Shown here piece by piece: positions 1 to 10,066 of a DNA stretch of 64,000 nucleotides (positions are counted from its first letter, which is position 1; each line of letters begins with the position of its first letter). Under the pieces are notes generated by a model. It made no database searches and was not told the origin of the DNA. It saw nothing but the letters and a program-made list of their open reading frames with translations. The stretch is from Escherichia phage SUT_E1520: the sequence record OQ885479, one strand, 5' to 3'. A program made the translations under genes and the position numbers.

Positions 1-876
1 ACGTAGGCGACATGCGTCTAACTCATCCTGGATACGCGCAGTAGTTACACCAGCGATCGCAGTCTGAAGTTCACAGCAACATTCAGCGATCTGACGTTCC
101 AGAGAGTTCTGGTTAGCACACATCTGAGCCTGAACAGCGGCAAACTGGTTATTAGTTTGTAAAGTCTGCTGGAAAGCGATCTGTGCAGAATCAAACTTAT
201 CTTGTGCACGAGCTATCTGGTTAGCTGCGAAAGATTGATCAATCTGGCGAGAAAGATCGAACTGACCCTGAATAACGTTGCGAGTTTCCTGGCAGATCTG
301 ATTAGACAGATTAGCACCTGTACCGTAGATCGTAGTTAGTACAGACTGAGTATCACGGCTCTGGTTTTGGGTTGTCTGGCTAAAACCATTGTTAACTGCG
401 CTTAAAACAGCTCCAGTACCCTGGTTAGCCTCTGTACGAGTAGTGTTGATAGCTGCTAGAATACTAGCGGTATCTTGGTTCTGAAGTACTGCATCAACTG
501 CGGTACCTTCACCAACTACACCACGTCCACCGAATCCACCGAAACCACCGAATCCGCCGGTTAATAGAGCACCGATTAGGATAGCTCCGAATAGTCCCAT
601 ACCTTCACCACCGAAAGCACCTGCGTTTGCTGGGTAACCACCCAGTAGGCCAGGGAAGCCACTAGTGAATACGTTTACTGGTTCTTGCATTTTATGTTTT
701 CCATATTTATGACAATGTTCATCATCGTCATCTTCTTCTTCATCATCGTGTTCACGATGTTTTTCTTCGTAGGCTCTGACCTTCTCCCACTTTTTCTTAT
801 CTGATTCCTCGTGACGGTGCAGTTCTGCTGCAACGCTAGCGACGGTCTCAGGACTCTTAGCTACTTCTTCTGTCAT
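1..876 (-). CDS. hypothetical protein, N-terminal part (gene runs past the window start); acidic stretch and Gly-rich GGFGGFGGFGG segment
   Basis: Open minus-strand frame from ATG at 874-876 (SD GGAGGTG upstream) to position 1 with no stop; not in the ORF track because it is truncated. Confidence 0.5.
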   Translation of the reverse strand, partial: MTEEVAKSPETVASVAAELHRHEESDKKKWEKVRAYEEKHREHDDEEEDDDDEHCHKYGKHKMQEPVNVFTSGFPGLLGGYPANAGAFGGEGMGLFGAILIGALLTGGFGGFGGFGGRGVVGEGTAVDAVLQNQDTASILAAINTTRTEANQGTGAVLSAVNNGFSQTTQNQSRDTQSVLTTIYGTGANLSNQICQETRNVIQGQFDLSRQIDQSFAANQIARAQDKFDSAQIAFQQTLQTNNQFAAVQAQMCANQNSLERQIAECCCELQTAIAGVTTARIQDELDACRLR

Positions 877-1142
877 ATTTTGACACCTCCTAGTATATAG
901 AAAATGTGTGTCTCTTTGATCACTCATCCATAACATATACTTTACACTACCCCAGCGAAAATGTCAAGGGGTCTTTAAAAATTGCCCCCGGATTTTTAGT
1001 GGGGTCACAAATTTTGGTCCTCCCCACTTATCTGCTACCCTTAAGTGCCCTATGATTTTCCTCTAAAAAGTTAAAAAATTTGATTGCTTGAATGCTAAAT
1101 TCTCTGTATAATATATCTATAAATTTGAGAGAGGAACCAAAT

Positions 1143-1661
1143 ATGAATGTTGATGAGCTAACACAGCACCTCTTATCCAGAGGATTTGATACAGATAAAT
1201 ATCATTGCTGGTTAAGTCCGGAAGGATGGCTAACAGTCCCGTTGTATGACTTCTCCGGGATGTTGCGAGGCTATCAGACGTATAATCCTTCTGCTCCAAA
1301 AGGTCATGGTAAGTGTCCCTTTGAAGCTAAATATTTTACTTATTCTACTACCCAGTGTGTATGGGGACTAGAAACTCTCAATGGAGATGAAAAAGTAGTA
1401 TTGATCGCTGAATCTGTATTTAAGGCAGTTGCGCTACATAACGCTGGTTATCCAGCCCTGGCAATGTTAGGTTCTTCTCCAGGAAAAGCGTTATTAAAGC
1501 AACTGAAATTATTACCTTTTAAATTGGTAGCTGTCGGAGACAACGATCCTGCGGGTGAAAAATTTGCTAGAAAATTAAACGGCTTTGTTTCTCCCGTAGA
1601 TGTGGATGAGATGTCTACCGAAAACTTGAAAAATTTTCTTGCTATGAAGCTAAATTTCTAA
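1143..1661 (+). CDS. Toprim-domain protein (primase-like or RNase M5-like fold)
   Basis: ORF track 1092..1661, start moved to the ATG after the conserved early leader GAGAGAGGAACCAAAT; Toprim signature VVLIAES...VAVGDNDPAGEKFARKL. Confidence 0.6.
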   Translation: MNVDELTQHLLSRGFDTDKYHCWLSPEGWLTVPLYDFSGMLRGYQTYNPSAPKGHGKCPFEAKYFTYSTTQCVWGLETLNGDEKVVLIAESVFKAVALHNAGYPALAMLGSSPGKALLKQLKLLPFKLVAVGDNDPAGEKFARKLNGFVSPVDVDEMSTENLKNFLAMKLNF

Positions 1662-1682
1662 TATAATATATCTTATAAATTC

Positions 1683-1771
1683 GGAAGAATAGCATAACGG
1701 TATTGCAGCAGATTGCTAATCTGTCGGTTTGAAATATAGCCTTGTGGGTTCGATTCCCACTTCTTCCGCCA
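1683..1771 (+). tRNA. tRNA-Ser (anticodon GCU), class II with long variable arm
   Basis: Manual fold: acceptor GGAAGAA/TTCTTCC, anticodon loop TTGCTAA, T-loop GGTTCGATTCC, 3-prime CCA encoded. Confidence 0.7.
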
Positions 1772-1777
1772 AATTCT

Positions 1778-1855
1778 GGTTCTCAAGCTCATATGGTATG
1801 AGCACCCGGCTCATAACCGGAAGGTACGTAGGTTCGAATCCTCGGGGAGCCACCA
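1778..1855 (+). tRNA. tRNA with CAU anticodon (Met or Ile2 type)
   Basis: Manual fold: acceptor with two G-U pairs, D-arm GCTCATATGGTATGAGC, anticodon loop CTCATAA, T-loop GGTTCGAATCC, CCA. Confidence 0.55.
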
Positions 1856-2073
1856 ACTTAATTAGGGGATTACAAGTGGAATTATACATAGTTTATGTTG
1901 TATTTATTCAAGATAGAGAATACCCGGATGAATATAAAAAAGGATATAGGTTAGCCAGAGCTACCTCTGAGGCCCAAGCTATGGATAAAGTGGCAGATTA
2001 TATGATTATGGTAGAAAACGTATACTATATCGACTCCCTTGAAGCCTCAAAAGTAATTGACTAAGGAGACTAT

Positions 2074-2259
2074 ATGTCCAAGTTTCAAGAACTCAAGCAA
2101 GAGCTAGAAGAATGTGCCTGCCCTGAGTGTAGGGGAATTGGTGAAAGTTCTGATGCAGAAGCAGGAGATACTTTTTGCAATATCTGGATTTGTTCAAATT
2201 GCAACGGTACAGGTATTAATCCTAACTGCGGTGTTTCCCTAGATATTGAACGAGGATAA
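2074..2259 (+). CDS. small Cys-rich protein (zinc-ribbon-like CPEC...CSNC)
   Basis: ORF track; SD AAGGAGA upstream; two CxxC pairs. Confidence 0.5.
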   Translation: MSKFQELKQELEECACPECRGIGESSDAEAGDTFCNIWICSNCNGTGINPNCGVSLDIERG

Positions 2260-2360
2260 TACCTGTGAAACTAAAAGATTATTATATTGGTTGGTTTGTG
2301 GGACTAGTAGTAGGATTTTCACTAGGCTATAATATGTATCAACTAATAAACTGATTACAT

Positions 2361-2437
2361 GGGGGTGTAATCGAATTGGTATAGGTACTGGACTTAAAAT
2401 TCAGGTTTTGTGGGTTCGAATCCCACCACCCCTACCA
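2361..2437 (+). tRNA. tRNA with UAA anticodon (Leu type) on a short-variable-loop scaffold; atypical
   Basis: Manual fold: acceptor GGGGGTG/CACCCCT, anticodon stem CTGGA/TTCAG, loop CTTAAAA, T-arm GTGGGTTCGAATCCCAC, CCA. Confidence 0.5.
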
Positions 2438-2452
2438 ACTTAAGGAAATAAG

Positions 2453-2620
2453 ATGTATAGACATCCACCTCCGCCAACACGTCGTTCTAGAGAAGTTATC
2501 CTCATGGAATTGACGAAAAACTTCAAGGCAACTCTTGAAGATAGAGATCTAGGCACAGATGAAGACATTGATTTTATTTGTAGACTATTAAACATGAAAC
2601 TGGAGAAACAACATGGCTAA
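2453..2620 (+). CDS. hypothetical small protein (55 aa)
   Basis: ATG after SD AAGGAAATAAG directly downstream of the tRNA; stop overlaps the next gene start; below the track length cutoff. Confidence 0.35.
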   Translation: MYRHPPPPTRRSREVILMELTKNFKATLEDRDLGTDEDIDFICRLLNMKLEKQHG

Positions 2621-2819
2621 TCCCGAAATTACCGCACAACGTTTCATGCTTAAAGGCATGATTGCTGAGGCAGGTATGACTCAAGAGGTTGCAGACTTTC
2701 ATAAGCAATTTCTTGATATTATAACCCTAGCTAAAGAGACAGGAGAAAGAGAACACGGAGCAGCAATTATGGCTATATCTCTTATTAGCCTAGACTTAGC
2801 TGAAGAATCTGGAGTTTAG
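2613..2819 (+). CDS. hypothetical protein
   Basis: ORF track; SD GGAGAAACAAC upstream. Confidence 0.5.
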   Translation: MANPEITAQRFMLKGMIAEAGMTQEVADFHKQFLDIITLAKETGEREHGAAIMAISLISLDLAEESGV

Positions 2820-2849
2820 CTCCTCCAAACAGAATTTTTAAAAATGTAC

Positions 2850-2879
2850 TTGCCTTTTGCTTTAAATTTCTGGTATAAT
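2850..2879 (+). promoter_or_regulatory. T5-type early promoter (-35 TTGCCT, -10 TATAAT, A-rich upstream)
   Basis: Member of a repeated promoter family with conserved leader ATAAATTGATGAAGGAG. Confidence 0.6.
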
Positions 2880-2909
2880 AGTTATATAAATTGATGAAGG
2901 AGTTAACGA

Positions 2910-3185
2910 ATGCAAAATCGTGTTATAGCAACTGGTATTGAAAGTGCAATCTGTAAATCCTGGGAAGGCTGGGAAGGTGAGATTGAATGGCTTTATTTCT
3001 ACGATGTAGAACTTCTGCCGGAAGTTAAAGCTAAATGTATTGAAGCTGGCATGGCTCCAGATGCAAAAGCTGATATTGATATTTCAATGTCTGAACTTAA
3101 AGGTCGTGTAATTACTGTTAGTGATGAGGGCGAAGAAGTTTTCGAACTTCCATTCTCCTTAACTGTCGCTCCTAAGTTCGACTAA
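2910..3185 (+). CDS. hypothetical protein
   Basis: ORF track; promoter and SD upstream. Confidence 0.55.
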   Translation: MQNRVIATGIESAICKSWEGWEGEIEWLYFYDVELLPEVKAKCIEAGMAPDAKADIDISMSELKGRVITVSDEGEEVFELPFSLTVAPKFD

Positions 3186-3221
3186 CTAATACAGCACTGA
3201 GCAAGTTCTTTAAAATTTGAC

Positions 3222-3250
3222 TTGCTCAGTGCCATAAAACTTGATATAAT
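3222..3250 (+). promoter_or_regulatory. T5-type early promoter upstream of the tRNA block; overlaps a 12-bp inverted repeat (3192-3232)
   Basis: TTGCTC-N17-TATAAT; GCACTGAGCAAG / CTTGCTCAGTGC hairpin overlaps the -35. Confidence 0.5.
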
Positions 3251-3313
3251 AGTTATCTAATTTGGAAACATATCTAAAAGTGTTTAAACTAGTATTTGAA
3301 TACTTTTAAATAT

Positions 3314-3404
3314 GTTGGATTAGTATCGTAGAGGTAGCGAAGCAGACTGTAAATCTGCCGACTCGGAAGGGTCTCGGGTGGTTCGACTCCATCATCCAAC
3401 ACCA
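3314..3404 (+). tRNA. tRNA-Tyr (GUA), class II
   Basis: Acceptor GTTGGAT/ATCCAAC, anticodon loop CTGTAAA, long variable arm, T-loop GGTTCGACTCC, CCA. Confidence 0.7.
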
Positions 3405-3411
3405 AATTTAA

Positions 3412-3488
3412 GTCCTGTTAGACAAACTGGTAAAGTCACTACCCTTTCAAGGTAGGATTTGCGGGTTCGATCCCCGCACAGGACGCCA
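3412..3488 (+). tRNA. tRNA-Glu (UUC)
   Basis: Acceptor GTCCTGT/ACAGGAC, anticodon arm CTACC-CTTTCAA-GGTAG, T-arm GCGGGTTCGATCCCCGC, CCA. Confidence 0.75.
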
Positions 3489-3496
3489 ATTCCTGC

Positions 3497-3573
3497 ATTC
3501 CTAGAGTGTTACTGGACAGCATGTCGGTCTCCAAAACCGTACGGTCTAGGTTCGAGTCCTAGTAGGTTTGCCA
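3497..3573 (+). tRNA. tRNA-Trp (CCA); 5-prime boundary uncertain
   Basis: Anticodon loop CTCCAAA, T-arm CTAGGTTCGAGTCCTAG, CCA; acceptor pairing has two mismatches. Confidence 0.5.
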
Positions 3574-3579
3574 AAATTT

Positions 3580-3654
3580 GCACCTTTAGCTGAGATGGAT
3601 TAGCGCTTGCCTGAAGAGCTTGAGAGGTTCGTTCGATACGAACAGGGTGCACCA
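3580..3654 (+). tRNA. tRNA, probable Phe (GAA); unusual T-arm GTTCG-TTCGATA-CGAAC
   Basis: Acceptor GCACCTT/AGGGTGC, loop CTGAAGA, CCA; anticodon stem imperfect. Confidence 0.5.
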
Positions 3655-3656
3655 AA

Positions 3657-3944
3657 TTGAGGGAGCTGCTGATGCATCCTGAAAACTTCTTTATTTACTG
3701 CGCGGATAAGTTGCTGAAACGTAGAATTAACAAAGTCTATCATTATCGTGCTAGTCAACAGCCTTATGTATACGCTTTTGACGGTGATCACATTCCATTA
3801 GAACAATTATCCTGTGATTACATGATATTGAAGAACTTTGACGAGACAAAGATCTCAAGCGTTCATAATCGACAGAATCCCTTAACGTGGAAATATAAGA
3901 AGAAAAAGAAAGGCATCAAATTTTTAAAAAATGTAGTTGCTTAG
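3657..3944 (+). CDS. hypothetical protein (TTG start per track; first ATG at 3672)
   Basis: ORF track; starts immediately after the tRNA. Confidence 0.4.
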   Translation: MRELLMHPENFFIYCADKLLKRRINKVYHYRASQQPYVYAFDGDHIPLEQLSCDYMILKNFDETKISSVHNRQNPLTWKYKKKKKGIKFLKNVVA

Positions 3945-3965
3945 TTTCCAAAAGTTCTGTATAAT
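3937..3965 (+). promoter_or_regulatory. T5-type early promoter
   Basis: TTGCTT-N17-TATAAT followed by the conserved ATAAATTGAACTGGAGAAG leader. Confidence 0.6.
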
Positions 3966-4012
3966 AATTACATAAATTGAACTGGAGAAGCAACATGACA
4001 GAACAAGATAAA

Positions 4013-4088
4013 TCGACCGTTGGCTGAATGGCTTAGGCGAAGGATTGCAAATCCTTTTTATGTGAGTTCAAATCTCATGCGGTCGTCC
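4013..4088 (+). tRNA. tRNA-Cys (GCA)
   Basis: Acceptor CGACCGT/GCGGTCG, anticodon arm AAGGA-TTGCAAA-TCCTT, T-loop GTTCAAATC, CCA. Confidence 0.7.
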
Positions 4089-4230
4089 AATTTGCTGAAA
4101 GAGTTGTTAAATCAATTCAGGCACGCGTAGGAACACTGTCTCCGTAATTGAAAGATGAGGCACGGTTTGGAGAGGTATGCCGCTACACGCTACGGTGCTA
4201 ACTCCGTCTAGGTGAAAATCCTAGTCAGCA
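4089..4230 (+). ncRNA. structured non-coding segment (about 140 nt); T-arm-like hairpin with a non-canonical TGAAAAT loop
   Basis: No ORF; closing helix TTGCTGA / TCAGCAA; CTAGG-TGAAAAT-CCTAG hairpin; does not fold as a standard tRNA. Confidence 0.3.
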
Positions 4231-4241
4231 ATATAAATTTA

Positions 4242-4324
4242 GGGTCGTTAGCCAAGCGGTTTGGCGGTGGACTGTTAATCCATGTCGAAAGACAACGTAG
4301 GTTCGAATCCTACACGGCCCGCCA
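4242..4324 (+). tRNA. tRNA, anticodon GUU (Asn type) with an unusually long 13-nt variable region
   Basis: Acceptor GGGTCGT/ACGGCCC, loop CTGTTAA, T-arm GTAGGTTCGAATCCTAC, CCA. Confidence 0.55.
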
Positions 4325-4426
4325 AATTCTGTGTAGAGTTAAGTAAACCGGTAGCCAACCAGCTATCATTGCTGACATCGAATTCAGTCACAGATACCAT
4401 TTTCATTAATAACTGAGGAAACAAGC

Positions 4427-4612
4427 ATGTCCAAGAATGTAATTGCACAGCTAGAAGTTCATCGTGATAGCACTATCAACAATATTGAAGTTGAGAAGAA
4501 ATACATCGAAGAACTTAAACATGATATACTAGTAAGTCTCAACCGTCTTAATGTACGAAAAAAGTTTCTTAAAGAACTTAATGCAGCTATTGAAAAACTC
4601 AAAGCTGAGTAA
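4427..4612 (+). CDS. hypothetical protein (coiled-coil-like)
   Basis: ORF track; SD GAGGAAACAAGC. Confidence 0.5.
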   Translation: MSKNVIAQLEVHRDSTINNIEVEKKYIEELKHDILVSLNRLNVRKKFLKELNAAIEKLKAE

Positions 4613-4621
4613 ATGAATTAT

Positions 4622-4699
4622 GCGACCGGGGCTGGCTTGGTAATGGTACTCCCCTGTCACGGGAGGGAATGTGGGTTCAAATCCCATCGGTCGCGCCAA
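4622..4699 (+). tRNA. tRNA-Asp (GUC)
   Basis: Acceptor GCGACCG/CGGTCGC, anticodon arm CTCCC-CTGTCAC-GGGAG, T-loop GGTTCAAATCC, CCA. Confidence 0.75.
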
Positions 4700-4724
4700 A
4701 TTAAACTAGTACGAGAAATATGCT

Positions 4725-5072
4725 ATGATTAATGCTAAAGAAGAATTGTTACTTGCCTTAAAGAATATTAATTCTGAAGTTAAGTGTATTAAGATAGAAT
4801 TCGGTTATTATGGGGACAAAGAAGTTTGGGTGTTACCCGTAGGTTATACAGAAAAAGATATTGAAGATTTTCTAAATAATCTAGACTTTAAATATGATTC
4901 TGGTTTCGGTGGGCAATTGCTTTATGGTAACGTGTGGTTTACTGATGGAACTTGGTTAGAACGTGGTGAATACGACGGTTCTGAATGGTGGGAATATAAG
5001 GCTACACCAGCAATCCCAGAAGAATGCCGAACAATTAAGGGTGAAGTAGATAATACTTTACGGTTAAACTAA
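4725..5072 (+). CDS. hypothetical protein
   Basis: ORF track. Confidence 0.55.
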   Translation: MINAKEELLLALKNINSEVKCIKIEFGYYGDKEVWVLPVGYTEKDIEDFLNNLDFKYDSGFGGQLLYGNVWFTDGTWLERGEYDGSEWWEYKATPAIPEECRTIKGEVDNTLRLN

Positions 5073-5079
5073 TAAAATT

Positions 5080-5182
5080 TCAGTGCAGAACACGGAGCTA
5101 GCAATTCGGAAGTGCTGACTCATGATAAGCTGCCTATGTACTTGCGAAGCGGTCGTGTCCAAGACTCGGACTCTTGCACTGA
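5080..5182 (+). ncRNA. structured non-coding element 1 of 3 in tandem (about 100 nt, long closing helix)
   Basis: No ORF; CAGTGCAGA pairs with TCTTGCACTG across about 90 nt. Confidence 0.3.
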
Positions 5183-5203
5183 AAACAATCAAACATTCTA
5201 GCG

Positions 5204-5316
5204 TGGTTGATGGGGAAACCAGCTTGGCGAGGGCAGAAGCTCGTTCGATTCGAGTGAAAGAATGGTTCTCGTAAGTCCGCACAAGTGATAACAGGTTCGA
5301 GTCCTGTCTAGAATGA
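5204..5316 (+). ncRNA. tRNA-like structured element 2 of 3 (about 112 nt): 8-bp acceptor-like helix, D-arm-like and canonical T-arm, no standard anticodon arm
   Basis: CATTCTAG / CTAGAATG closing helix; TGGTT-GATGGGGAA-ACCA; ACAGG-TTCGAGT-CCTGT. Confidence 0.35.
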
Positions 5317-5327
5317 CACTATAAAGT

Positions 5328-5438
5328 TTACTTATTATGTAGGTTCCGATAGATCGGCGGGTCTATTCTGGCACTTAAGAGAGGTCTCGCAAACTTCTTT
5401 GTCAGCCGTGGGGTTGGTAGCCTCCAGGTGGCCTACAC
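5328..5438 (+). ncRNA. structured non-coding element 3 of 3 (about 110 nt)
   Basis: TACTTATTATGTAGG pairs with CCTACACAATAAGTA; no ORF. Confidence 0.3.
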
Positions 5439-5464
5439 AATAAGTAAATTTATTAAAAATTCAT

Positions 5465-5493
5465 TTGCTATTATGCTTAATTCTCTGTATAAT
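5465..5493 (+). promoter_or_regulatory. T5-type early promoter
   Basis: TTGCTA-N17-TATAAT; leader ATAAAGTGTTGAGAAGG. Confidence 0.6.
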
Positions 5494-5525
5494 ATACCTT
5501 ATAAAGTGTTGAGAAGGAAAGCAAA

Positions 5526-5723
5526 ATGAAAAAAGTTTTACTGCTGTCTGTATTCCTACTTACTGGTTGTTTTAAACTTGACTCAACCATTAATAAAGAG
5601 TATGAATTTGCTAAAAATTTCTGTGGCGGAGAGAGTAATATAAAGAATTTCTACATATATAGTACAATTCCTAGTACCGTTTATTGTGTAGACGGACGAA
5701 TTATTAATATTCCTCCACAATAA
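5526..5723 (+). CDS. putative lipoprotein (signal peptide with lipobox LTGC)
   Basis: ORF track; N-terminus MKKVLLLSVFLLTGC. Confidence 0.5.
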   Translation: MKKVLLLSVFLLTGCFKLDSTINKEYEFAKNFCGGESNIKNFYIYSTIPSTVYCVDGRIINIPPQ

Positions 5724-5732
5724 AAGAATTAA

Positions 5733-5808
5733 CAGTGCGTAGCGCAGTTGGTAGCGTGGGAGCCTTGGATGCTTCGGGTCGCAGGTTCGAGTCCTGCCGC
5801 ACTGACCA
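5733..5808 (+). tRNA. tRNA-Pro (UGG)
   Basis: Acceptor CAGTGCG/CGCACTG, D-arm GCGCAGTTGGTAGCGT, loop CTTGGAT, T-arm GCAGGTTCGAGTCCTGC, CCA. Confidence 0.7.
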
Positions 5809-5815
5809 AACAATT

Positions 5816-5892
5816 GCGGGTTAGATCTCTGGTAGAGATCGCTAGTCTCATAAGCTAGAAAGAGGTAGGTTCGATTCCTGCACCCGCTTCCA
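5816..5892 (+). tRNA. tRNA with CAU anticodon (Met or Ile2 type)
   Basis: Anticodon arm CTAGT-CTCATAA-GCTAG, T-loop GGTTCGATTCC, CCA; first acceptor pair imperfect. Confidence 0.55.
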
Positions 5893-5912
5893 TTTTAATA
5901 GAGGATTTCGAA

Positions 5913-6080
5913 ATGAAAGTATTTCGATTAGTAGTAAGTGACAAACGGTTAGGTAAGAATACATCAAAATCCTTACTCGCTCATTATGGTAAAAATTGGG
6001 ATGAAGTAATGGTAGAGTTTAGTACTAATCACCCTTACTTAAAAGTCCACTCTATTAAGGAAGTGTATAATGGTTACTAA
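5913..6080 (+). CDS. hypothetical small protein (55 aa)
   Basis: ATG after SD AGAGGA; below the track cutoff. Confidence 0.35.
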   Translation: MKVFRLVVSDKRLGKNTSKSLLAHYGKNWDEVMVEFSTNHPYLKVHSIKEVYNGY

Positions 6081-6081
6081 T

Positions 6082-6160
6082 AGATCGCTAGCTCAATAGG
6101 TTTAGTAGCATCCGACTTTTAATCGGAAGGTTCTGGGTTCGAGTCCCAGGCGATCTACCA
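6082..6160 (+). tRNA. tRNA-Lys (UUU)
   Basis: Acceptor AGATCGC/GCGATCT, anticodon arm TCCGA-CTTTTAA-TCGGA, T-arm CTGGGTTCGAGTCCCAG, CCA. Confidence 0.7.
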
Positions 6161-6178
6161 ATTTCAAGAAAAACGCAG

Positions 6179-6207
6179 TTGCTTAATGCTTAATTTCTTG
6201 TTATAAT
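6179..6207 (+). promoter_or_regulatory. T5-type early promoter driving a non-coding leader and downstream tRNAs
   Basis: TTGCTT-N17-TATAAT; leader ATAAATTGATGAGGAG but no ORF follows. Confidence 0.6.
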
Positions 6208-6214
6208 ATTTATA

Positions 6215-6445
6215 TAAATTGATGAGGAGAAATCCTCATCATAGTTCACTAAGGTATTAGCTCGACCTAGGACTGGCTGCCAAAAAGCACGATCCCTACG
6301 ATTCGGGAGAAGTTCTAGATTAGTCCACTAGGTTCAGCGGCAACTGAATAGTGTATCGGGTTTGCGAGATGACGCGGTTCCTTCCGCTTGAAGCGAAGGT
6401 GCTGTAGTTACGCCGAGCTAATAGCCTTAGTAAACTAAAGAATTT
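6215..6445 (+). ncRNA. promoter-proximal structured non-coding RNA candidate (about 230 nt) upstream of tRNA-Ala
   Basis: No ORF or tRNA fold; 9-bp long-range helix ATTAGCTCG (6256-6264) with CGAGCTAAT (6414-6422). Confidence 0.35.
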
Positions 6446-6524
6446 GGGGAATGGGTCTGCATGGAGTGGACACCTCGCTTGCACCGAGGACATCAGAACG
6501 GTTCGATTCCGTTATTCTCCACCA
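6446..6524 (+). tRNA. tRNA-Ala (UGC)
   Basis: Acceptor GGGGAAT/ATTCTCC, anticodon arm CCTCG-CTTGCAC-CGAGG, T-arm AACGGTTCGATTCCGTT, CCA. Confidence 0.65.
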
Positions 6525-6529
6525 AACAT

Positions 6530-6606
6530 GCGTGATTGATGGAATTGGCATACATACCGTCCTTAGAAGTCGGGTTTTGAGGGTTCGAATCCCTTGTCAC
6601 GCACCA
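6530..6606 (+). tRNA. tRNA with UAG anticodon (Leu type) on a short-variable-loop scaffold; atypical
   Basis: Acceptor GCGTGAT/GTCACGC, loop CTTAGAA, variable GTTTT, T-arm GAGGGTTCGAATCCCTT, CCA. Confidence 0.5.
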
Positions 6607-6718
6607 AATTTGATGGTCAGAGTAAATTAAACCTACTATCTCGGTTGAGCTGTTTTAATGGGTTCGAATCCCAGCGAGGCGTAACTGCCTGGTGTGATAG
6701 AGGCATCATCTTATTATT
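6607..6718 (+). ncRNA. non-coding segment with an orphan T-arm (GGGTTCGAATCCCAG) and no recognisable acceptor stem
   Basis: Canonical T-loop near 6658-6672 but no complementary 5-prime/3-prime acceptor halves found by hand. Confidence 0.25.
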
Positions 6719-6809
6719 GGAAGAGCAAATCGAATTGGCGACGAAAACCGCTTGGAAAGTGGCTGACTGGTAAAACGGCTTGAGAGTTCAAATCTCTCCT
6801 CTTCCGCCA
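6719..6809 (+). tRNA. tRNA-Ser (GGA), class II
   Basis: Acceptor GGAAGAG/CTCTTCC, loop TTGGAAA, long variable arm, T-arm GAGAGTTCAAATCTCTC, CCA. Confidence 0.6.
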
Positions 6810-6821
6810 AACAATTTATAT

Positions 6822-6916
6822 GGTAGGTCAATCCAATGGCTGGCGCTGGACTCCGACTTGAAATCGGTTGATCGTAGTGATACGGTGTAAGGGTTCGATC
6901 CCCTTACCTACCTCCA
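6822..6916 (+). tRNA. tRNA-Ser (UGA), class II with a very long variable arm (95 nt total)
   Basis: Acceptor GGTAGGT/ACCTACC, anticodon arm CCGA-CTTGAAA-TCGG, T-arm AAGGGTTCGATCCCCTT, CCA. Confidence 0.6.
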
Positions 6917-7062
6917 AATCCTGAAGTATGCCGGAATCGGTAGACGGGGCTGCCTAAAAGGTTTATAGGGAACATCCACTCCCTGCAACATACCTCATAA
7001 AGCGGCTGAGATAAATGGTCTATCTCGTGAAGGTTCAAGTCCTTCTGCTTCTTGATACACCA
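6917..7062 (+). ncRNA. non-coding structured segment containing a T-arm-like hairpin (GAAGG-TTCAAGT-CCTTC); not resolved as a tRNA
   Basis: No ORF; several local hairpins, including GAGATA-AATGGTC-TATCTC. Confidence 0.25.
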
Positions 7063-7282
7063 ATGGCTCAAAGTGTAACGGTGCTATTTGATGCGCTTAG
7101 TAAGACTTCCCCGACATGCGTTCGGGAGTAAGCTGCTAAGACTAGAGTAGAAGAGTTTCTGAGAGCCGCCACAATTGAAAATTCGTACTCGTCTTGAGCT
7201 GCGTGCAATAGGAGATAACTTGATTAGTATTCTAGAACATGCTAATTGAGGAAGGTTTCGCTAACCCTGCGAGTTTTCAATT
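7063..7282 (+). ncRNA. non-coding structured segment with a 13-bp long-range helix
   Basis: CCACAATTGAAAA (7169-7181) pairs with TTTTCAATTGTGG (7273-7285); no ORF, no canonical T-loop. Confidence 0.3.
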
Positions 7283-7359
7283 GTGGCTATATCATAATTG
7301 GTTAATGATCCTGATTGTGAATCAGGCCTATGTGGATTCGAATTCCACTAGCCACCCCA
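7283..7359 (+). tRNA. tRNA-His (GUG)
   Basis: Acceptor GTGGCTA/TAGCCAC, anticodon arm CCTGA-TTGTGAA-TCAGG, T-arm GTGGATTCGAATTCCAC, CCA. Confidence 0.7.
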
Positions 7360-7384
7360 AATTAACTTAAATAGGAAATAAAAT

Positions 7385-7579
7385 ATGGCTGATTTCTGCA
7401 AACAATGCTCCATTGATATGTGGGGTAAAGATACTGGTGATCTTTCTGGTTTGATTACAGAAGCTGAGGTCAAAGAAGGTTATGGTGCAGTTGTGATTTG
7501 CGAAGGATGCGGCGTTATTCGTGTTGATCATGAAGGCAAACGTTTGGAAGAATCTGAGCCAACAACAATTTTTCCGTAG
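7385..7579 (+). CDS. small Cys-containing protein (CxxC...CxxC zinc-finger-like)
   Basis: ORF track; SD AGGAAATAAA. Confidence 0.5.
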   Translation: MADFCKQCSIDMWGKDTGDLSGLITEAEVKEGYGAVVICEGCGVIRVDHEGKRLEESEPTTIFP

Positions 7580-7591
7580 AATAAAAATTAT

Positions 7592-7667
7592 TGGGATGTA
7601 GATCAATTGGCAGATCGTCGGCCTCTGACTCCGAAGGTTCCACGTTCGATCCGTGGCATCCCAGCCA
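7592..7667 (+). tRNA. tRNA-Gln (CUG)
   Basis: Loop CTCTGAC, T-arm CCACGTTCGATCCGTGG, CCA. Confidence 0.55.
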
Positions 7668-7673
7668 AATAAT

Positions 7674-7749
7674 TGGAGAGTAGTGTAACGGTTAGCACAA
7701 CGGCCTTTGACTCCGTTAATGGTAGGTTCGATTCCTCCTTCTCCAGCCA
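7674..7749 (+). tRNA. tRNA-Gln (UUG)
   Basis: Loop CTTTGAC, T-loop GGTTCGATTCC, CCA. Confidence 0.55.
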
Positions 7750-7757
7750 AACAATAA

Positions 7758-7833
7758 GCGGTTAAGCACACGGGTTGTGCCGCAGGCCTTCCAAGCCTCG
7801 CTGAGTAGGGTTCGATTCCCTCTAGCCGCTCCA
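7758..7833 (+). tRNA. tRNA-Gly (UCC)
   Basis: Acceptor GCGGTTA/TAGCCGC, loop CTTCCAA, T-loop GGTTCGATTCC, CCA. Confidence 0.6.
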
Positions 7834-7849
7834 ACTTTAAGGAAACATT

Positions 7850-8101
7850 ATGCACGTTTTTGAGTTTCGTAATAAAAGTACCGAAAAACGAGTTATTGTT
7901 ATTGGAGAAACATACCGAGCATACGAACAAACTGACGGCTCTGTTATCCTGAATGATGAGAAAGGAGGTTTTAGCTTTTATCCAGAAGAACCTTATGAAG
8001 AGTTTCGAAAACAATTTAACCTAGACTGGAGAAAGCATTTAAACACTGTTGCTTCATCTGTAGTATTGCCAACTACCAGTACTGTACTCTCTAATGGCTG
8101 A
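7850..8101 (+). CDS. hypothetical protein
   Basis: ORF track; SD AAGGAAACA. Confidence 0.5.
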   Translation: MHVFEFRNKSTEKRVIVIGETYRAYEQTDGSVILNDEKGGFSFYPEEPYEEFRKQFNLDWRKHLNTVASSVVLPTTSTVLSNG

Positions 8102-8258
8102 TAACCTAAAAGTCAAGATCGATAAACAAAAGAAACGTGTAGAAGTAGAGATTGGTGAAGAACGTGTAGCCTTCACCTTTGAATTTCTACAACAAATGGC
8201 AATGGCGGTTATGACTGATAAGTCTCCTGTTATTGAAAAAGAAATCCCGTTGAAATAA
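8094..8258 (+). CDS. hypothetical small protein (54 aa), start overlaps the upstream stop
   Basis: ATGGCTGA overlap with the preceding gene; below the track cutoff. Confidence 0.35.
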   Translation: MADNLKVKIDKQKKRVEVEIGEERVAFTFEFLQQMAMAVMTDKSPVIEKEIPLK

Positions 8259-8266
8259 CGGGTTCT

Positions 8267-8353
8267 GCTGGGTTGGCAGAATGGTTGAATGCACCTGATT
8301 TGTAATCAGGAGGAGTAATCCCGTTACAGGTTCGAATCCTGTGCCCAGCACCA
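8267..8353 (+). tRNA. tRNA with long variable region; anticodon read as UGU (Thr type) but identity uncertain
   Basis: Acceptor GCTGGGT/GCCCAGC, anticodon arm CCTGA-TTTGTAA-TCAGG, T-arm ACAGGTTCGAATCCTGT, CCA. Confidence 0.5.
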
Positions 8354-8367
8354 ACTTAAGGACTATT

Positions 8368-8535
8368 ATGTTTAAATTATTAGTAGTTATCTGGTATAGT
8401 CAATCAAATAGAGCGAATACCTCCCACGTTATAGACTTTAATACTAAAAATGAAGCTGAAAAAGCATATTCTAATTTAATAGAACGTAATAAAGAATCTC
8501 GTAGTATAGTTTATGAAGTGACTAAACTTTATTAA
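8368..8535 (+). CDS. hypothetical small protein (start moved to the in-frame ATG after the tRNA)
   Basis: Track ORF 8341..8535 begins inside the tRNA; SD AAGGACT precedes the ATG at 8368. Confidence 0.4.
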   Translation: MFKLLVVIWYSQSNRANTSHVIDFNTKNEAEKAYSNLIERNKESRSIVYEVTKLY

Positions 8536-8543
8536 AAATTCAT

Positions 8544-8572
8544 TTGCTTTCTCTCTTATTTATTGTTATAAT
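8544..8572 (+). promoter_or_regulatory. T5-type early promoter
   Basis: TTGCTT-N17-TATAAT; leader ATAAATTAATGAGAGGG. Confidence 0.6.
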
Positions 8573-8602
8573 ATTTATATAAATTAATGAGAGGGAAGCC
8601 AA

Positions 8603-8896
8603 ATGAAACGTTATCTTTCTGTTGTGTTCCAAACTGGTGGTCAACGCTATACCTATGAATTTCCTGGCTCTTGGAAGATCAAAGAAGGTGATCAAGTAGT
8701 AGTGTTAACACCGCGTGAGGGTTTTAAGGTAGTAACGGTTAAGCAAGTATTTCCAAAAGAGCATGAACCAGCTAAAGGCATTCGCTATAAGATGATTCAT
8801 GGTGTAGTTCGTCAAGTACCACGAGCGGAAGTCGAAATCAAAGTAGATAAAGATGGTAAACTTAAATATACCTCTTGCTTAGACGAGTTGCTATAA
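8603..8896 (+). CDS. hypothetical protein
   Basis: ORF track; promoter and SD upstream. Confidence 0.55.
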   Translation: MKRYLSVVFQTGGQRYTYEFPGSWKIKEGDQVVVLTPREGFKVVTVKQVFPKEHEPAKGIRYKMIHGVVRQVPRAEVEIKVDKDGKLKYTSCLDELL

Positions 8897-9102
8897 TGAG
8901 GATTACTTTTACAGAAAAGATCATGAGTAATGGTGTTATGATCATTACCGCATGGGATGGTAATCAGTGGTGTAGTGTTTCAGGTATTAAGCCTGAAGAA
9001 CAAACACTAGAAAATATCTCAAAGATTAAGCGAAGAATGGCAGAACGTGCACGACTTCCAGGTGCACCTAGAAATGGCAAACGTTCTGCTGCAAAATGTT
9101 AA
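8896..9102 (+). CDS. hypothetical protein (start at TAATG overlap)
   Basis: Track ORF 8875..9102; in-frame ATG at 8896 overlaps the upstream stop. Confidence 0.45.
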   Translation: MRITFTEKIMSNGVMIITAWDGNQWCSVSGIKPEEQTLENISKIKRRMAERARLPGAPRNGKRSAAKC

Positions 9103-9103
9103 T

Positions 9104-9180
9104 GCTTCGGTAGCTTAGCGATCTAAAGCACTCGGCTGATAACCGAGAGATCGGGGGTTTAAATCCCTCCCGGAGTACCA
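9104..9180 (+). tRNA. tRNA-Ile (GAU) with a non-canonical T-loop (TTTAAAT)
   Basis: Acceptor GCTTCGG/CCGGAGT with G-U pairs, anticodon arm CTCGG-CTGATAA-CCGAG, CCA. Confidence 0.6.
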
Positions 9181-9194
9181 AATTAAGGTTATGT

Positions 9195-9353
9195 ATGGAA
9201 GATATTGATAAACTTGCAAAAATATTTGCTGAACTTTCTGATATAGAAGTCTCAGAGAACTCTAGAATAGATATGTTTATTGACCAATATAGAGAAGGAC
9301 TTATCAGTAAGAAAGATCTTCTAGATCTAACCTATAAAGAATTAACTAGTTAG
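9195..9353 (+). CDS. hypothetical small protein (52 aa)
   Basis: ATG after SD AAGG; below the track cutoff. Confidence 0.35.
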   Translation: MEDIDKLAKIFAELSDIEVSENSRIDMFIDQYREGLISKKDLLDLTYKELTS

Positions 9354-9423
9354 TTGGCAGAGTGGTTATGCACCTCCTTCATACGGAGCGACTACAGTGG
9401 TTCAAATCCACTACTAACTACCA
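9348..9423 (+). tRNA. tRNA with CAU anticodon (third CAU tRNA; Met or Ile2 type)
   Basis: Acceptor AGTTAGT/ACTAACT, loop TTCATAC, T-arm AGTGGTTCAAATCCACT, CCA. Confidence 0.6.
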
Positions 9424-9460
9424 TTAAAAGAGCTAGAGATAGCTAACTTTAGGAGCAGCT

Positions 9461-9655
9461 ATGTTAACAATTAAAATAATGTCAGCCAAGAATGGGGAAC
9501 AGATTCATACAGGCAAAAGTGTAAGCTTTAATCCTAGAAATAAAAGATTGGCTATAGTTGGAGTAGACCAAGCCATCTTTTTAAAAGAAGATGAAGTAGC
9601 ATATGTCATGAACCAAACTGGTAAGACAGTTTCCGTATACTATGGAAAAGTATAA
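9461..9655 (+). CDS. hypothetical protein
   Basis: ORF track; SD AGGAGCAGCT. Confidence 0.5.
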   Translation: MLTIKIMSAKNGEQIHTGKSVSFNPRNKRLAIVGVDQAIFLKEDEVAYVMNQTGKTVSVYYGKV

Positions 9656-9697
9656 AGAATAAATAGCTGAGCCAAATTCTAACATCGGGGAGATCTA

Positions 9698-10066
9698 ATG
9701 AAAGCATATCAAAATCTTAAATCTGGCGTAATTAACCTTGTTCATGAAAATCAGATTATTCAGCTATACTCCGACAACGGTGAACTTAAACAGAAAGTTC
9801 TAGTTGAAGATCTAGAAGGTATCACACCACAATTCGATCCCGAAGCCTTCCGTGAAGTCAAAGTGGAAGTCGCCCCTCAAATCGAAGGTGGTCAGCACCT
9901 AAATGTCAATGTGTTAAGCTGTGATCAGCTTTTGGATGCGCAGAAACATCCTGAAAAATATCCTCAGTTGACCATCCGTGTCTCTGGCTACGCTGTTCGA
10001 TTTAACGCACTGACTCGTGAACAACAGAACGACGTTATTAGTCGTACATTTACTCAGGCGATGTAA
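9698..10066 (+). CDS. autonomous glycyl-radical cofactor (GrcA/YfiD-like; pyruvate formate-lyase C-terminal domain homolog)
   Basis: C-terminus [31 protein letters not shown] matches the glycyl-radical motif RVSGY of PflB/GrcA. Confidence 0.8.

Follow-up and report, generated by a model that had tools for sequence, protein, structure and literature searches.

Rad, a counter-retron protein encoded ahead of the main tRNA block of a T5-like phage, is predicted to be a stand-alone primase-type polymerase domain with a conserved metal site

The Toprim gene at positions 1143–1661 (+ strand) of the DNA analysed here, a 64,000-nucleotide stretch of Escherichia phage SUT_E1520 (record OQ885479; hereafter the window), is the already known rad (retron anti-defense; SP15 ORF75, T5 ORF071), which encodes an accessory counter-defence protein of T5-like phages. 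Its 172-residue product is predicted to be a complete, minimal, stand-alone RNA-polymerase domain of the DnaG/T7 primase type, built of an N-terminal β-subdomain and a Toprim domain, and we favour, with moderate confidence, a mechanism in which Rad neutralises retrons by binding msr-msd RNA or msDNA and then cutting it at the Toprim site. The fold assignment, the mapping of residues, the survey of neighbourhoods and fusions and the frame split in jumbo-phage homologues are new here.

The first 4 kb of the window match Escherichia phages SUT_E420 and T5_ev212 with 100% identity and many further Tequintavirus and Epseptimavirus genomes with 96–99.9%, and this near-identity places the window, which runs from a tRNA-rich early region to late structural genes, within a T5-like phage. 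The rad coding sequence, assigned from the ORF, its translation, identity, dN/dS and the literature, starts with ATG at 1143 and comprises 172 codons on the + strand followed by a TAA stop (1659–1661). The preliminary description had reported a 173-residue Toprim protein here; its ORF and its Toprim signature hold, as Pfam Toprim_2 scores 25.2 bits against a curated cut-off of 22.1 (E 2.2e-5, residues 88–149), but its length includes the stop codon. PHROG 849, labelled ‘DNA primase’, matches Rad with E 2.5e-62, through profile positions 146–337 of 435 only. The ORF is genuine and strongly constrained by purifying selection, with dN/dS at 0.039 in comparison with T5 (30 synonymous and 5 non-synonymous differences) and at 0.035 in comparison with Salmonella phage ende, an Epseptimavirus (82 synonymous and 29 non-synonymous). 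A value of 0.63 in comparison with Escherichia phage YJin-2024a was discarded as meaningless, the sequences having been compared unaligned across an in-frame 19-residue deletion. The rad allele of this Tequintavirus (L103:2501-2959) lacks HNAGYPALAMLGSSPGKAL (residues 99–117) of the Toprim domain and is probably defective.

By tblastn, the window protein is 100% identical over 172 residues to SP15 (NC_048627.1 35933–36448), where the gene is annotated as a ‘DNA primase’ of 570 nt and 189 residues (NC_048627 35930–36499), a length also given in the preprint discussed below. It is 97.1% identical to T5 AAX12008.1, the ‘DNA primase’ encoded between ORF070 and ORF072 in AY587007; T5 ORF071, formerly annotated as a primase for its TOPRIM domain, is Rad (PMC10644984). 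In SP15 and T5 the gene occupies the same position ahead of tRNA-Ser in the tRNA-rich region, and nothing of substance differs between their Rad and the window protein, the papers giving 189 residues and the evidence here 172.

The identity to Rad/ORF75 is thereby established. Azam et al. named SP15 ORF75 rad in a preprint and reported that Rad neutralises retrons Ec67 (Eco2), Ec78 (Eco7), Ec83, Ec48 and Se72, that its expression lowers msr-msd RNA and msDNA with the RT and effector mRNA unchanged, that the single mutations R13E, P33T, I88T, D135H and E156H weaken Rad and double mutations abolish its activity, and that a homologue from Proteus phage Privateer is likewise active (10.1101/2023.03.15.532788). 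The anti-retron effect itself is established genetically in peer-reviewed work, which identifies ORF75 as the determinant of T5-like phage escape from Eco2 and Eco7 and states that its mechanism could not be determined (PMC11555353), whereas the preprint is the only source for the drop in msr-msd RNA and msDNA and for the weakened activity of D135H and E156H. T5 carrying ORF75 fails to escape the FORC82 type I-A retron (PMC12475279). Phages deleted for the region, both natural and laboratory-made, are viable and grow well on retron-free hosts (PMC10644984, PMC11555353, 10.1101/2023.03.15.532788). An older partial record of BF23 (NC_042564.1 10069–10584) contains rad with 97.7% identity, whereas the 2023 genome paper describes a 4-kb deletion in BF23 that removes ORF071–075 (PMC10644984); BF23 stocks thus apparently differ, and rad is dispensable and easily lost.

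The 189-residue annotation arises from an in-frame upstream extension at 1092–1142 (+ strand), found in the ORF listing and in the MM-1 and SP15 annotations, that is probably untranslated. Four lines favour the 172-residue form: homologues begin at the second Met; a purine-rich ribosome-binding site, GAGAGAGGAA, read from the sequence at 1127–1136 (+ strand), ends 6 nt before ATG 1143; ATG 1092 lies upstream of a TATAAT box at 1107–1112; and the published mutant numbering fits only the shorter form, as R13, P33, I88, D135 and E156 are all found at those positions (5/5, versus 2/5 in the 189-residue numbering). The TATAAT box belongs to a promoter-like element at 1084–1126 (+ strand), consisting by sequence reading of TTGCTT, 17 nt, TATAAT and a conserved box, TATAATATATCTATAAATTT. 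The element falls below the promoter-scan threshold and its -35 matches at 3/6 positions only; its position corresponds to ‘repeat c copy 2’ of the T5 record, and we regard it as a candidate promoter, read rather than mapped. A second promoter-like site at 1639–1681 (+ strand; TTGCTA, 17 nt, TATAAT and a second TATAATATATCTTATAAATT box; promoter scan 10/12) overlaps the 3′ end of rad just ahead of tRNA-Ser, and the phage 5 and BF23 records carry a ‘promoter’ annotation under the region matching rad. The two sites share a 20-nt box, TATAATATATCT(T)ATAAATT, which starts with a perfect -10 hexamer and is present in near-identical copies at 1107–1126, before rad, and at 1662–1681, directly after the rad stop and ahead of tRNA-Ser. 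By virtue of the second copy, tRNA-Ser would have a promoter of its own, with its -35 lying within the coding part of rad and a leader only ∼8 nt long.

The fold was modelled with AlphaFold2 from a 67-member alignment (pLDDT 96, pTM 0.91), and in structural comparisons whole Rad, and not the Toprim half alone, matches primase RNA-polymerase domains, the top matches including the ssDNA-bound DnaG structure 3B39. In size, Rad is close to the polymerase domain of the T7 primase. In the model, the N-terminal RNA-polymerase subdomain (residues 1–83; 1143–1391, + strand) comprises a first helix with a conserved HLxxRG motif (R13) and a β-sheet bearing GYQxY (G43, Y47) and Y64, and the Toprim domain (residues 84–172; 1392–1658, + strand), delimited by Pfam Toprim_2, conservation and an HMMER alignment to DnaG, carries the acidic residues E90 (nt 1410–1412), D133/D135 (nt 1539–1547) and D153/D155/E156 (nt 1599–1610). 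The preliminary description had singled out the Glu of IAES (residues 88–91) and the DxD of VGDNDPAGE (residues 131–139); these are E90, D133 (nt 1539–1541) and D135 (nt 1545–1547). Among the 67 family members G43, Y64 and G75 are invariant, and L10, R13, Y47, E90, F93, D133, D135, G138 and D153 are at least 90% conserved, so the two-metal acidic site (E90, D133, D135 and D153) is, by sequence, intact. At the profile level the family finds DnaG cores in the PDB (E 4e-6 to 1e-3), for which the family profile is required, a single-sequence PDB search yielding chance xylanase matches only. HMMER places E90 opposite the Glu of E. coli DnaG ‘VVEGYMD’ and D133/D135 opposite ‘DGDRAG’, and in the alignment to Aquifex DnaG the near-invariant Y47 stands opposite the Arg of ‘GFGGR’, the alignment of the loop that follows being uncertain. 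Both the class of fold and the conservation of the site are in our view established.

Comparison with other Toprim enzymes, which the preliminary description had proposed as a check on its RNase M5, DnaG and OLD candidates, sets the DnaG-type core, matching over the whole protein, apart from the other two. RNase M5, which matures 5S rRNA, carries its Toprim domain at the N-terminus, ahead of a separate RNA/uL18-binding domain, whereas in Rad the Toprim domain is C-terminal and preceded by the primase subdomain; the structural alignment to RNase M5 covers 87–105 residues of the Toprim half only, and neither single-sequence nor family-profile PDB searches give a sequence-level match to it. P2 OLD, GajA, PARIS AriB and the Toprim effector of retron Eco2 share with Rad the Toprim metal site and a role in phage–host conflict, and several of these enzymes reportedly cut tRNAs. 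Unlike Rad, however, the OLD-type nucleases and the Eco2 effector serve as defence effectors of hosts or prophages, in association with ABC ATPases or a reverse transcriptase. PADLOC gives no match of Rad to its OLD, Gabija or PARIS models, and neither an ATPase domain in Rad nor an ATPase neighbour was found. The only PADLOC match is to the DRT-class model RTasDnaG-like (26.7 bits, Toprim segment, residues 84–145), and DnaG-like Toprim modules may, judging by this resemblance, be present both in reverse-transcriptase defences and in the phages that these oppose. The idea that Rad mimics the Toprim effector of Eco2 was rejected, as retrons whose effectors are unrelated are blocked by Rad too. 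TIGR00646, the ‘MG010 DNA primase-like protein’ family of zinc-finger-less truncated DnaG paralogues, resembles Rad in consisting of a short, free-standing DnaG-like core and matches residues 22–148 weakly (E 3e-4, 20 bits, far below its cut-off of 260 bits), so that Rad is not a member.

On the cleavage mechanism, Rad would be made from its own promoter-like site in the tRNA-rich early region, replication not needing it. The primase-like nucleic-acid groove would bind structured msr-msd RNA or the RNA–DNA msDNA, the Toprim metal site would cleave the bound molecule, and the retron would lose the msDNA with which it senses the phage, such that the effector would never be released. Direct binding and cleavage by Rad itself are what we infer, and several considerations weigh against the cleavage step. 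The fold belongs to polymerase domains rather than to any known RNase, the acidic site is compatible with polymerase and nuclease chemistry alike, and single catalytic-site mutants only weakened Rad (10.1101/2023.03.15.532788). Moreover, in several retrons the loss or cutting of msDNA, e.g. by phage flap nucleases, triggers the effector (PMC12475279), and simple degradation is therefore not obviously protective in a real infection; Rad has been tested mostly by plasmid pre-expression.

Alternatively, Rad may act as a binder or shield that does not cut, the groove clamping the single-stranded part of msDNA or the msr-msd RNA and thereby either blocking RT priming or hiding msDNA from the phage nucleases that would set off the retron by cutting it. 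In DnaG-type domains the single-stranded template DNA is held in the groove, as in 3B39, and the modest effect of single active-site mutations is in keeping with binding. As msDNA cutting by a phage flap nuclease activates type I-A retrons (PMC12475279), protection of msDNA would be a logical counter-measure. The four acidic metal ligands are nevertheless each conserved in at least 90% of the members of a highly diverse family, which points to catalysis, and msDNA is reduced, not stabilised, in the preprint, and we consider a pure shield possible though unlikely.

The Rad family comprises hundreds of clusters. An initial word-indexed homologue search returned six proteins only, and exhaustive representative and profile searches were needed to reveal 441 cluster representatives at E ≤ 1e-3, mostly of 160–200 residues, and 831 clusters at E ≤ 1e-5, respectively; the Vibrio F92 protein as query found no match in IMG/VR. 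The Rad module is fused to a nucleotidyltransferase, to GNAT and Arr, to ParB, to an HAD phosphatase and to Mom, and no fusion to a helicase or a primase zinc finger occurs in the family survey. Throughout Demerecviridae, rad stays inside the tRNA array even at 39% identity (in Stubb, 7 nt before two tRNA-Lys genes). Elsewhere, one environmental contig has a homologue within a tRNA array, close to genes for a CCA enzyme and a kinase; homologues also overlap the gene for a CCA-adding enzyme in Vibrio and Shewanella phages, directly precede RtcB in Erwinia jumbo phages or follow an Rnl-type RNA ligase. Other homologues sit among replication genes, after an SF2 helicase at the end of the replication module in Kagunavirus and after T4-type clamp-loader genes in one case, or among unrelated genes, and many have no tRNA or RNA-repair neighbour. 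Within an environmental clade a tRNA is found within 3 kb in only 2/80 loci, although the 80 loci form a single clade and are of limited value as independent neighbourhood counts. In the same clade a frequent DUF2828/DUF7788 neighbour was considered as a Ro/TROVE-like RNA-binding protein and discarded, Pfam giving those DUFs and a sub-threshold vWA match only. NAD-salvage genes occur at or near rad homologues in three unrelated phages (Salmonella phage ende, L102:296-2030; L097:2801-5670; L009:7239-9689), and include those for NMNAT, a PnuC transporter, NAMPT, a Nudix enzyme and ribose-phosphate pyrophosphokinase; these neighbours fit shared counter-defence islands. We read the pattern as a whole as residence in variable counter-defence islands, many of which answer tRNA-targeting immunity, and not as proof of tRNA processing.

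The same +1 frame change divides the rad homologues of three jumbo-phage genera: in Dickeya phage JA29 (L105:3501-3996), in Erwinia phage Special G (gp48/gp49; L007:5001-5484) and in Klebsiella phage MJ359 (L106:3501-4002). A conserved CGT ATT YTT AAC (T/G)GA junction marks the split, immediately ahead of the catalytic Glu (LTESVFK), and the halves retain 43–47% identity to T5 Rad and all acidic residues, a pattern suggestive of programmed +1 frameshifting or of a protein made in two pieces rather than of a dead gene.

Repeated adjacency to tRNA arrays, RtcB, Rnl-type ligase, CCA-adding enzyme and HAD phosphatase across unrelated phages would be explained if the family were not specific to retrons and were instead a general RNA-end or small-RNA enzyme built on a primase core, part of a phage toolkit that protects or repairs tRNAs attacked by tRNA-targeting immunity. 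We hold this broader reading to be improbable at present.

A narrower variant, in which Rad would be a nuclease that processes or repairs phage tRNAs or other small RNAs and would affect retrons only secondarily, takes its appeal from the gene’s location. The first tRNA of the block, tRNA-Ser(GCU) at 1683–1771 (+ strand; ARAGORN, Rfam 60.5 bits), begins after a gap of 21 nt from the rad stop and is followed by tRNA-Met at 1778–1852 (+ strand; Rfam RF00005, 40.3 bits), which is annotated in related genomes and was missed by ARAGORN; the latter program finds 20 tRNAs up to position 9423. The gene had been placed at the head of a tRNA island and right before a cluster of tRNAs and ncRNAs. The tRNA part of this is correct, but at the gathering score Rfam detects only tRNAs, and no other RNA family, in positions 1–10000, and because complete T5-like genomes carry two further tRNA genes 3–3.6 kb upstream, beyond the left edge of the window, rad heads the main tRNA block and not the entire tRNA region. 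The persistence of rad in the tRNA arrays of Demerecviridae, the CCA-adding enzyme, RtcB, ligase and kinase neighbours and the single HAD phosphatase fusion are in favour of a tRNA nuclease. Against it, phage tRNA-Tyr expressed alone works in Rad-less phage (10.1101/2023.03.15.532788), so that at least tRNA-Tyr matures without Rad, and the proposed role in phage tRNA maturation is contradicted to that extent. Natural and laboratory deletions of the region are viable, many homologues have no such neighbour, a nearby tRNA is rare in the environmental clade (2/80 loci), and the same neighbourhoods hold the NAD-salvage genes that suit generic anti-defence islands. We judge a primary role in tRNA processing to be decidedly unlikely. 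An RNA-directed role, as proposed in the preliminary description, has experimental backing in the reported lowering of msr-msd RNA and msDNA, but the reported target is host retron RNA and not a phage tRNA or ncRNA precursor.

Several small ORFs adjoin the first tRNAs. A 61-residue Cys-rich ORF at 2074–2259, named ‘antitermination protein Q’ in related records, contains two CxxCxGxG motifs and has sub-threshold matches only to zinc-ribbon and DnaJ-finger models, and in the SP15 record no CDS is annotated in the corresponding interval. Stand-alone primase zinc ribbons have been described for some jumbo phages; the proposal that this ORF is such a ribbon beside Rad was dropped in view of the sub-threshold matches and the missing SP15 CDS. 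Three further small ORFs (2453–2620, 2613–2819 and 2910–3185) lie between rad and tRNA-Tyr and, going by SP15 gene order only, probably include the ORF pair reported to neutralise retron Ec83 jointly, numbered 71/72 in the text and 72/73 in a figure legend of the preprint (10.1101/2023.03.15.532788).

The primase-like fold invites the question of whether Rad is instead an active zinc-finger-less primase that synthesises RNA on msDNA or other ssDNA and so turns the sensor into a non-working RNA–DNA duplex. The entire protein matches primase RNA-polymerase domains (E. coli, Aquifex, B. subtilis and M. tuberculosis DnaG, the T7 gp4 fragment and the N-terminal domain of Twinkle), with the fold and the Toprim acidic residues (Glu, DxD and a further Asp) in common, and R13 of helix 1 is kept together with the acidic site. 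Iyer et al. (2017) argue that Pfam Toprim_2/3/4 are versions of active DnaG-like primase domains from mobile elements. Unlike these primases, however, Rad has neither a zinc-binding nor a C-terminal helicase-binding domain: it starts at the first helix of the polymerase domain with no Cys/His cluster in its sequence, ends in the model directly after the Toprim domain, and none of the 67 family members has a zinc-finger Pfam match. The helical insertions of bacterial DnaG are also absent. The zinc-binding domain is needed for template-directed initiation in DnaG and T7 gp4. The Arg of ‘GFGGR’ is replaced by the near-invariant Y47, NCBIfam dnaG gives Rad 14 bits against 78 for the true primase of T5, and RNA synthesis would leave the reported drop in msr-msd RNA unexplained. 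The likelihood of this alternative is in our estimation slight.

The replicative primase of T5 is a separate 296-residue DnaG-type protein encoded between a P-loop protein and DNA polymerase, next to the helicase, and rad, in the tRNA region, lies ∼33 kb from this helicase–primase–polymerase module. The two proteins share 23% identity (E 0.06), there is no second Toprim gene in the window, and Kagunavirus and Privateer likewise have separate primase-helicases besides their Rad homologue. The ‘DNA primase’ label in many GenBank records and PHROG 849 might suggest that Rad is a functionless leftover of the replicative primase, either decayed or redundant; this reading is refuted by a dN/dS of ∼0.04, the low identity to the primase of T5 itself, a family of hundreds of clusters of stand-alone 165–190-residue proteins and a clear published phenotype (PMC11555353), and we give it practically no credence. 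The view that the protein stands alone and is not a fragment of the replicative primase is therefore upheld: the fold is of primase type, but T5 has a separate primase with low identity to Rad, and rad-less phages are viable. Taken together, the original observation is confirmed and its interpretation partly supported.

The ‘DNA primase’ label that rad carries in many T5-like records misleads and calls for replacement. Rad is among the few phage proteins reported to disarm several types of retron. The experiments now needed are narrowed by three findings: that Rad is predicted to be a complete zinc-finger-less primase polymerase domain, neither RNase M5-like nor OLD-like; that its metal site is kept while one primase arginine is lost; and that its relatives travel with RNA-repair and NAD-salvage genes. 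If the family were indeed a general RNA enzyme, its inhibition of retrons would follow, among other effects, from a wider action on structured RNA or RNA–DNA hybrids.
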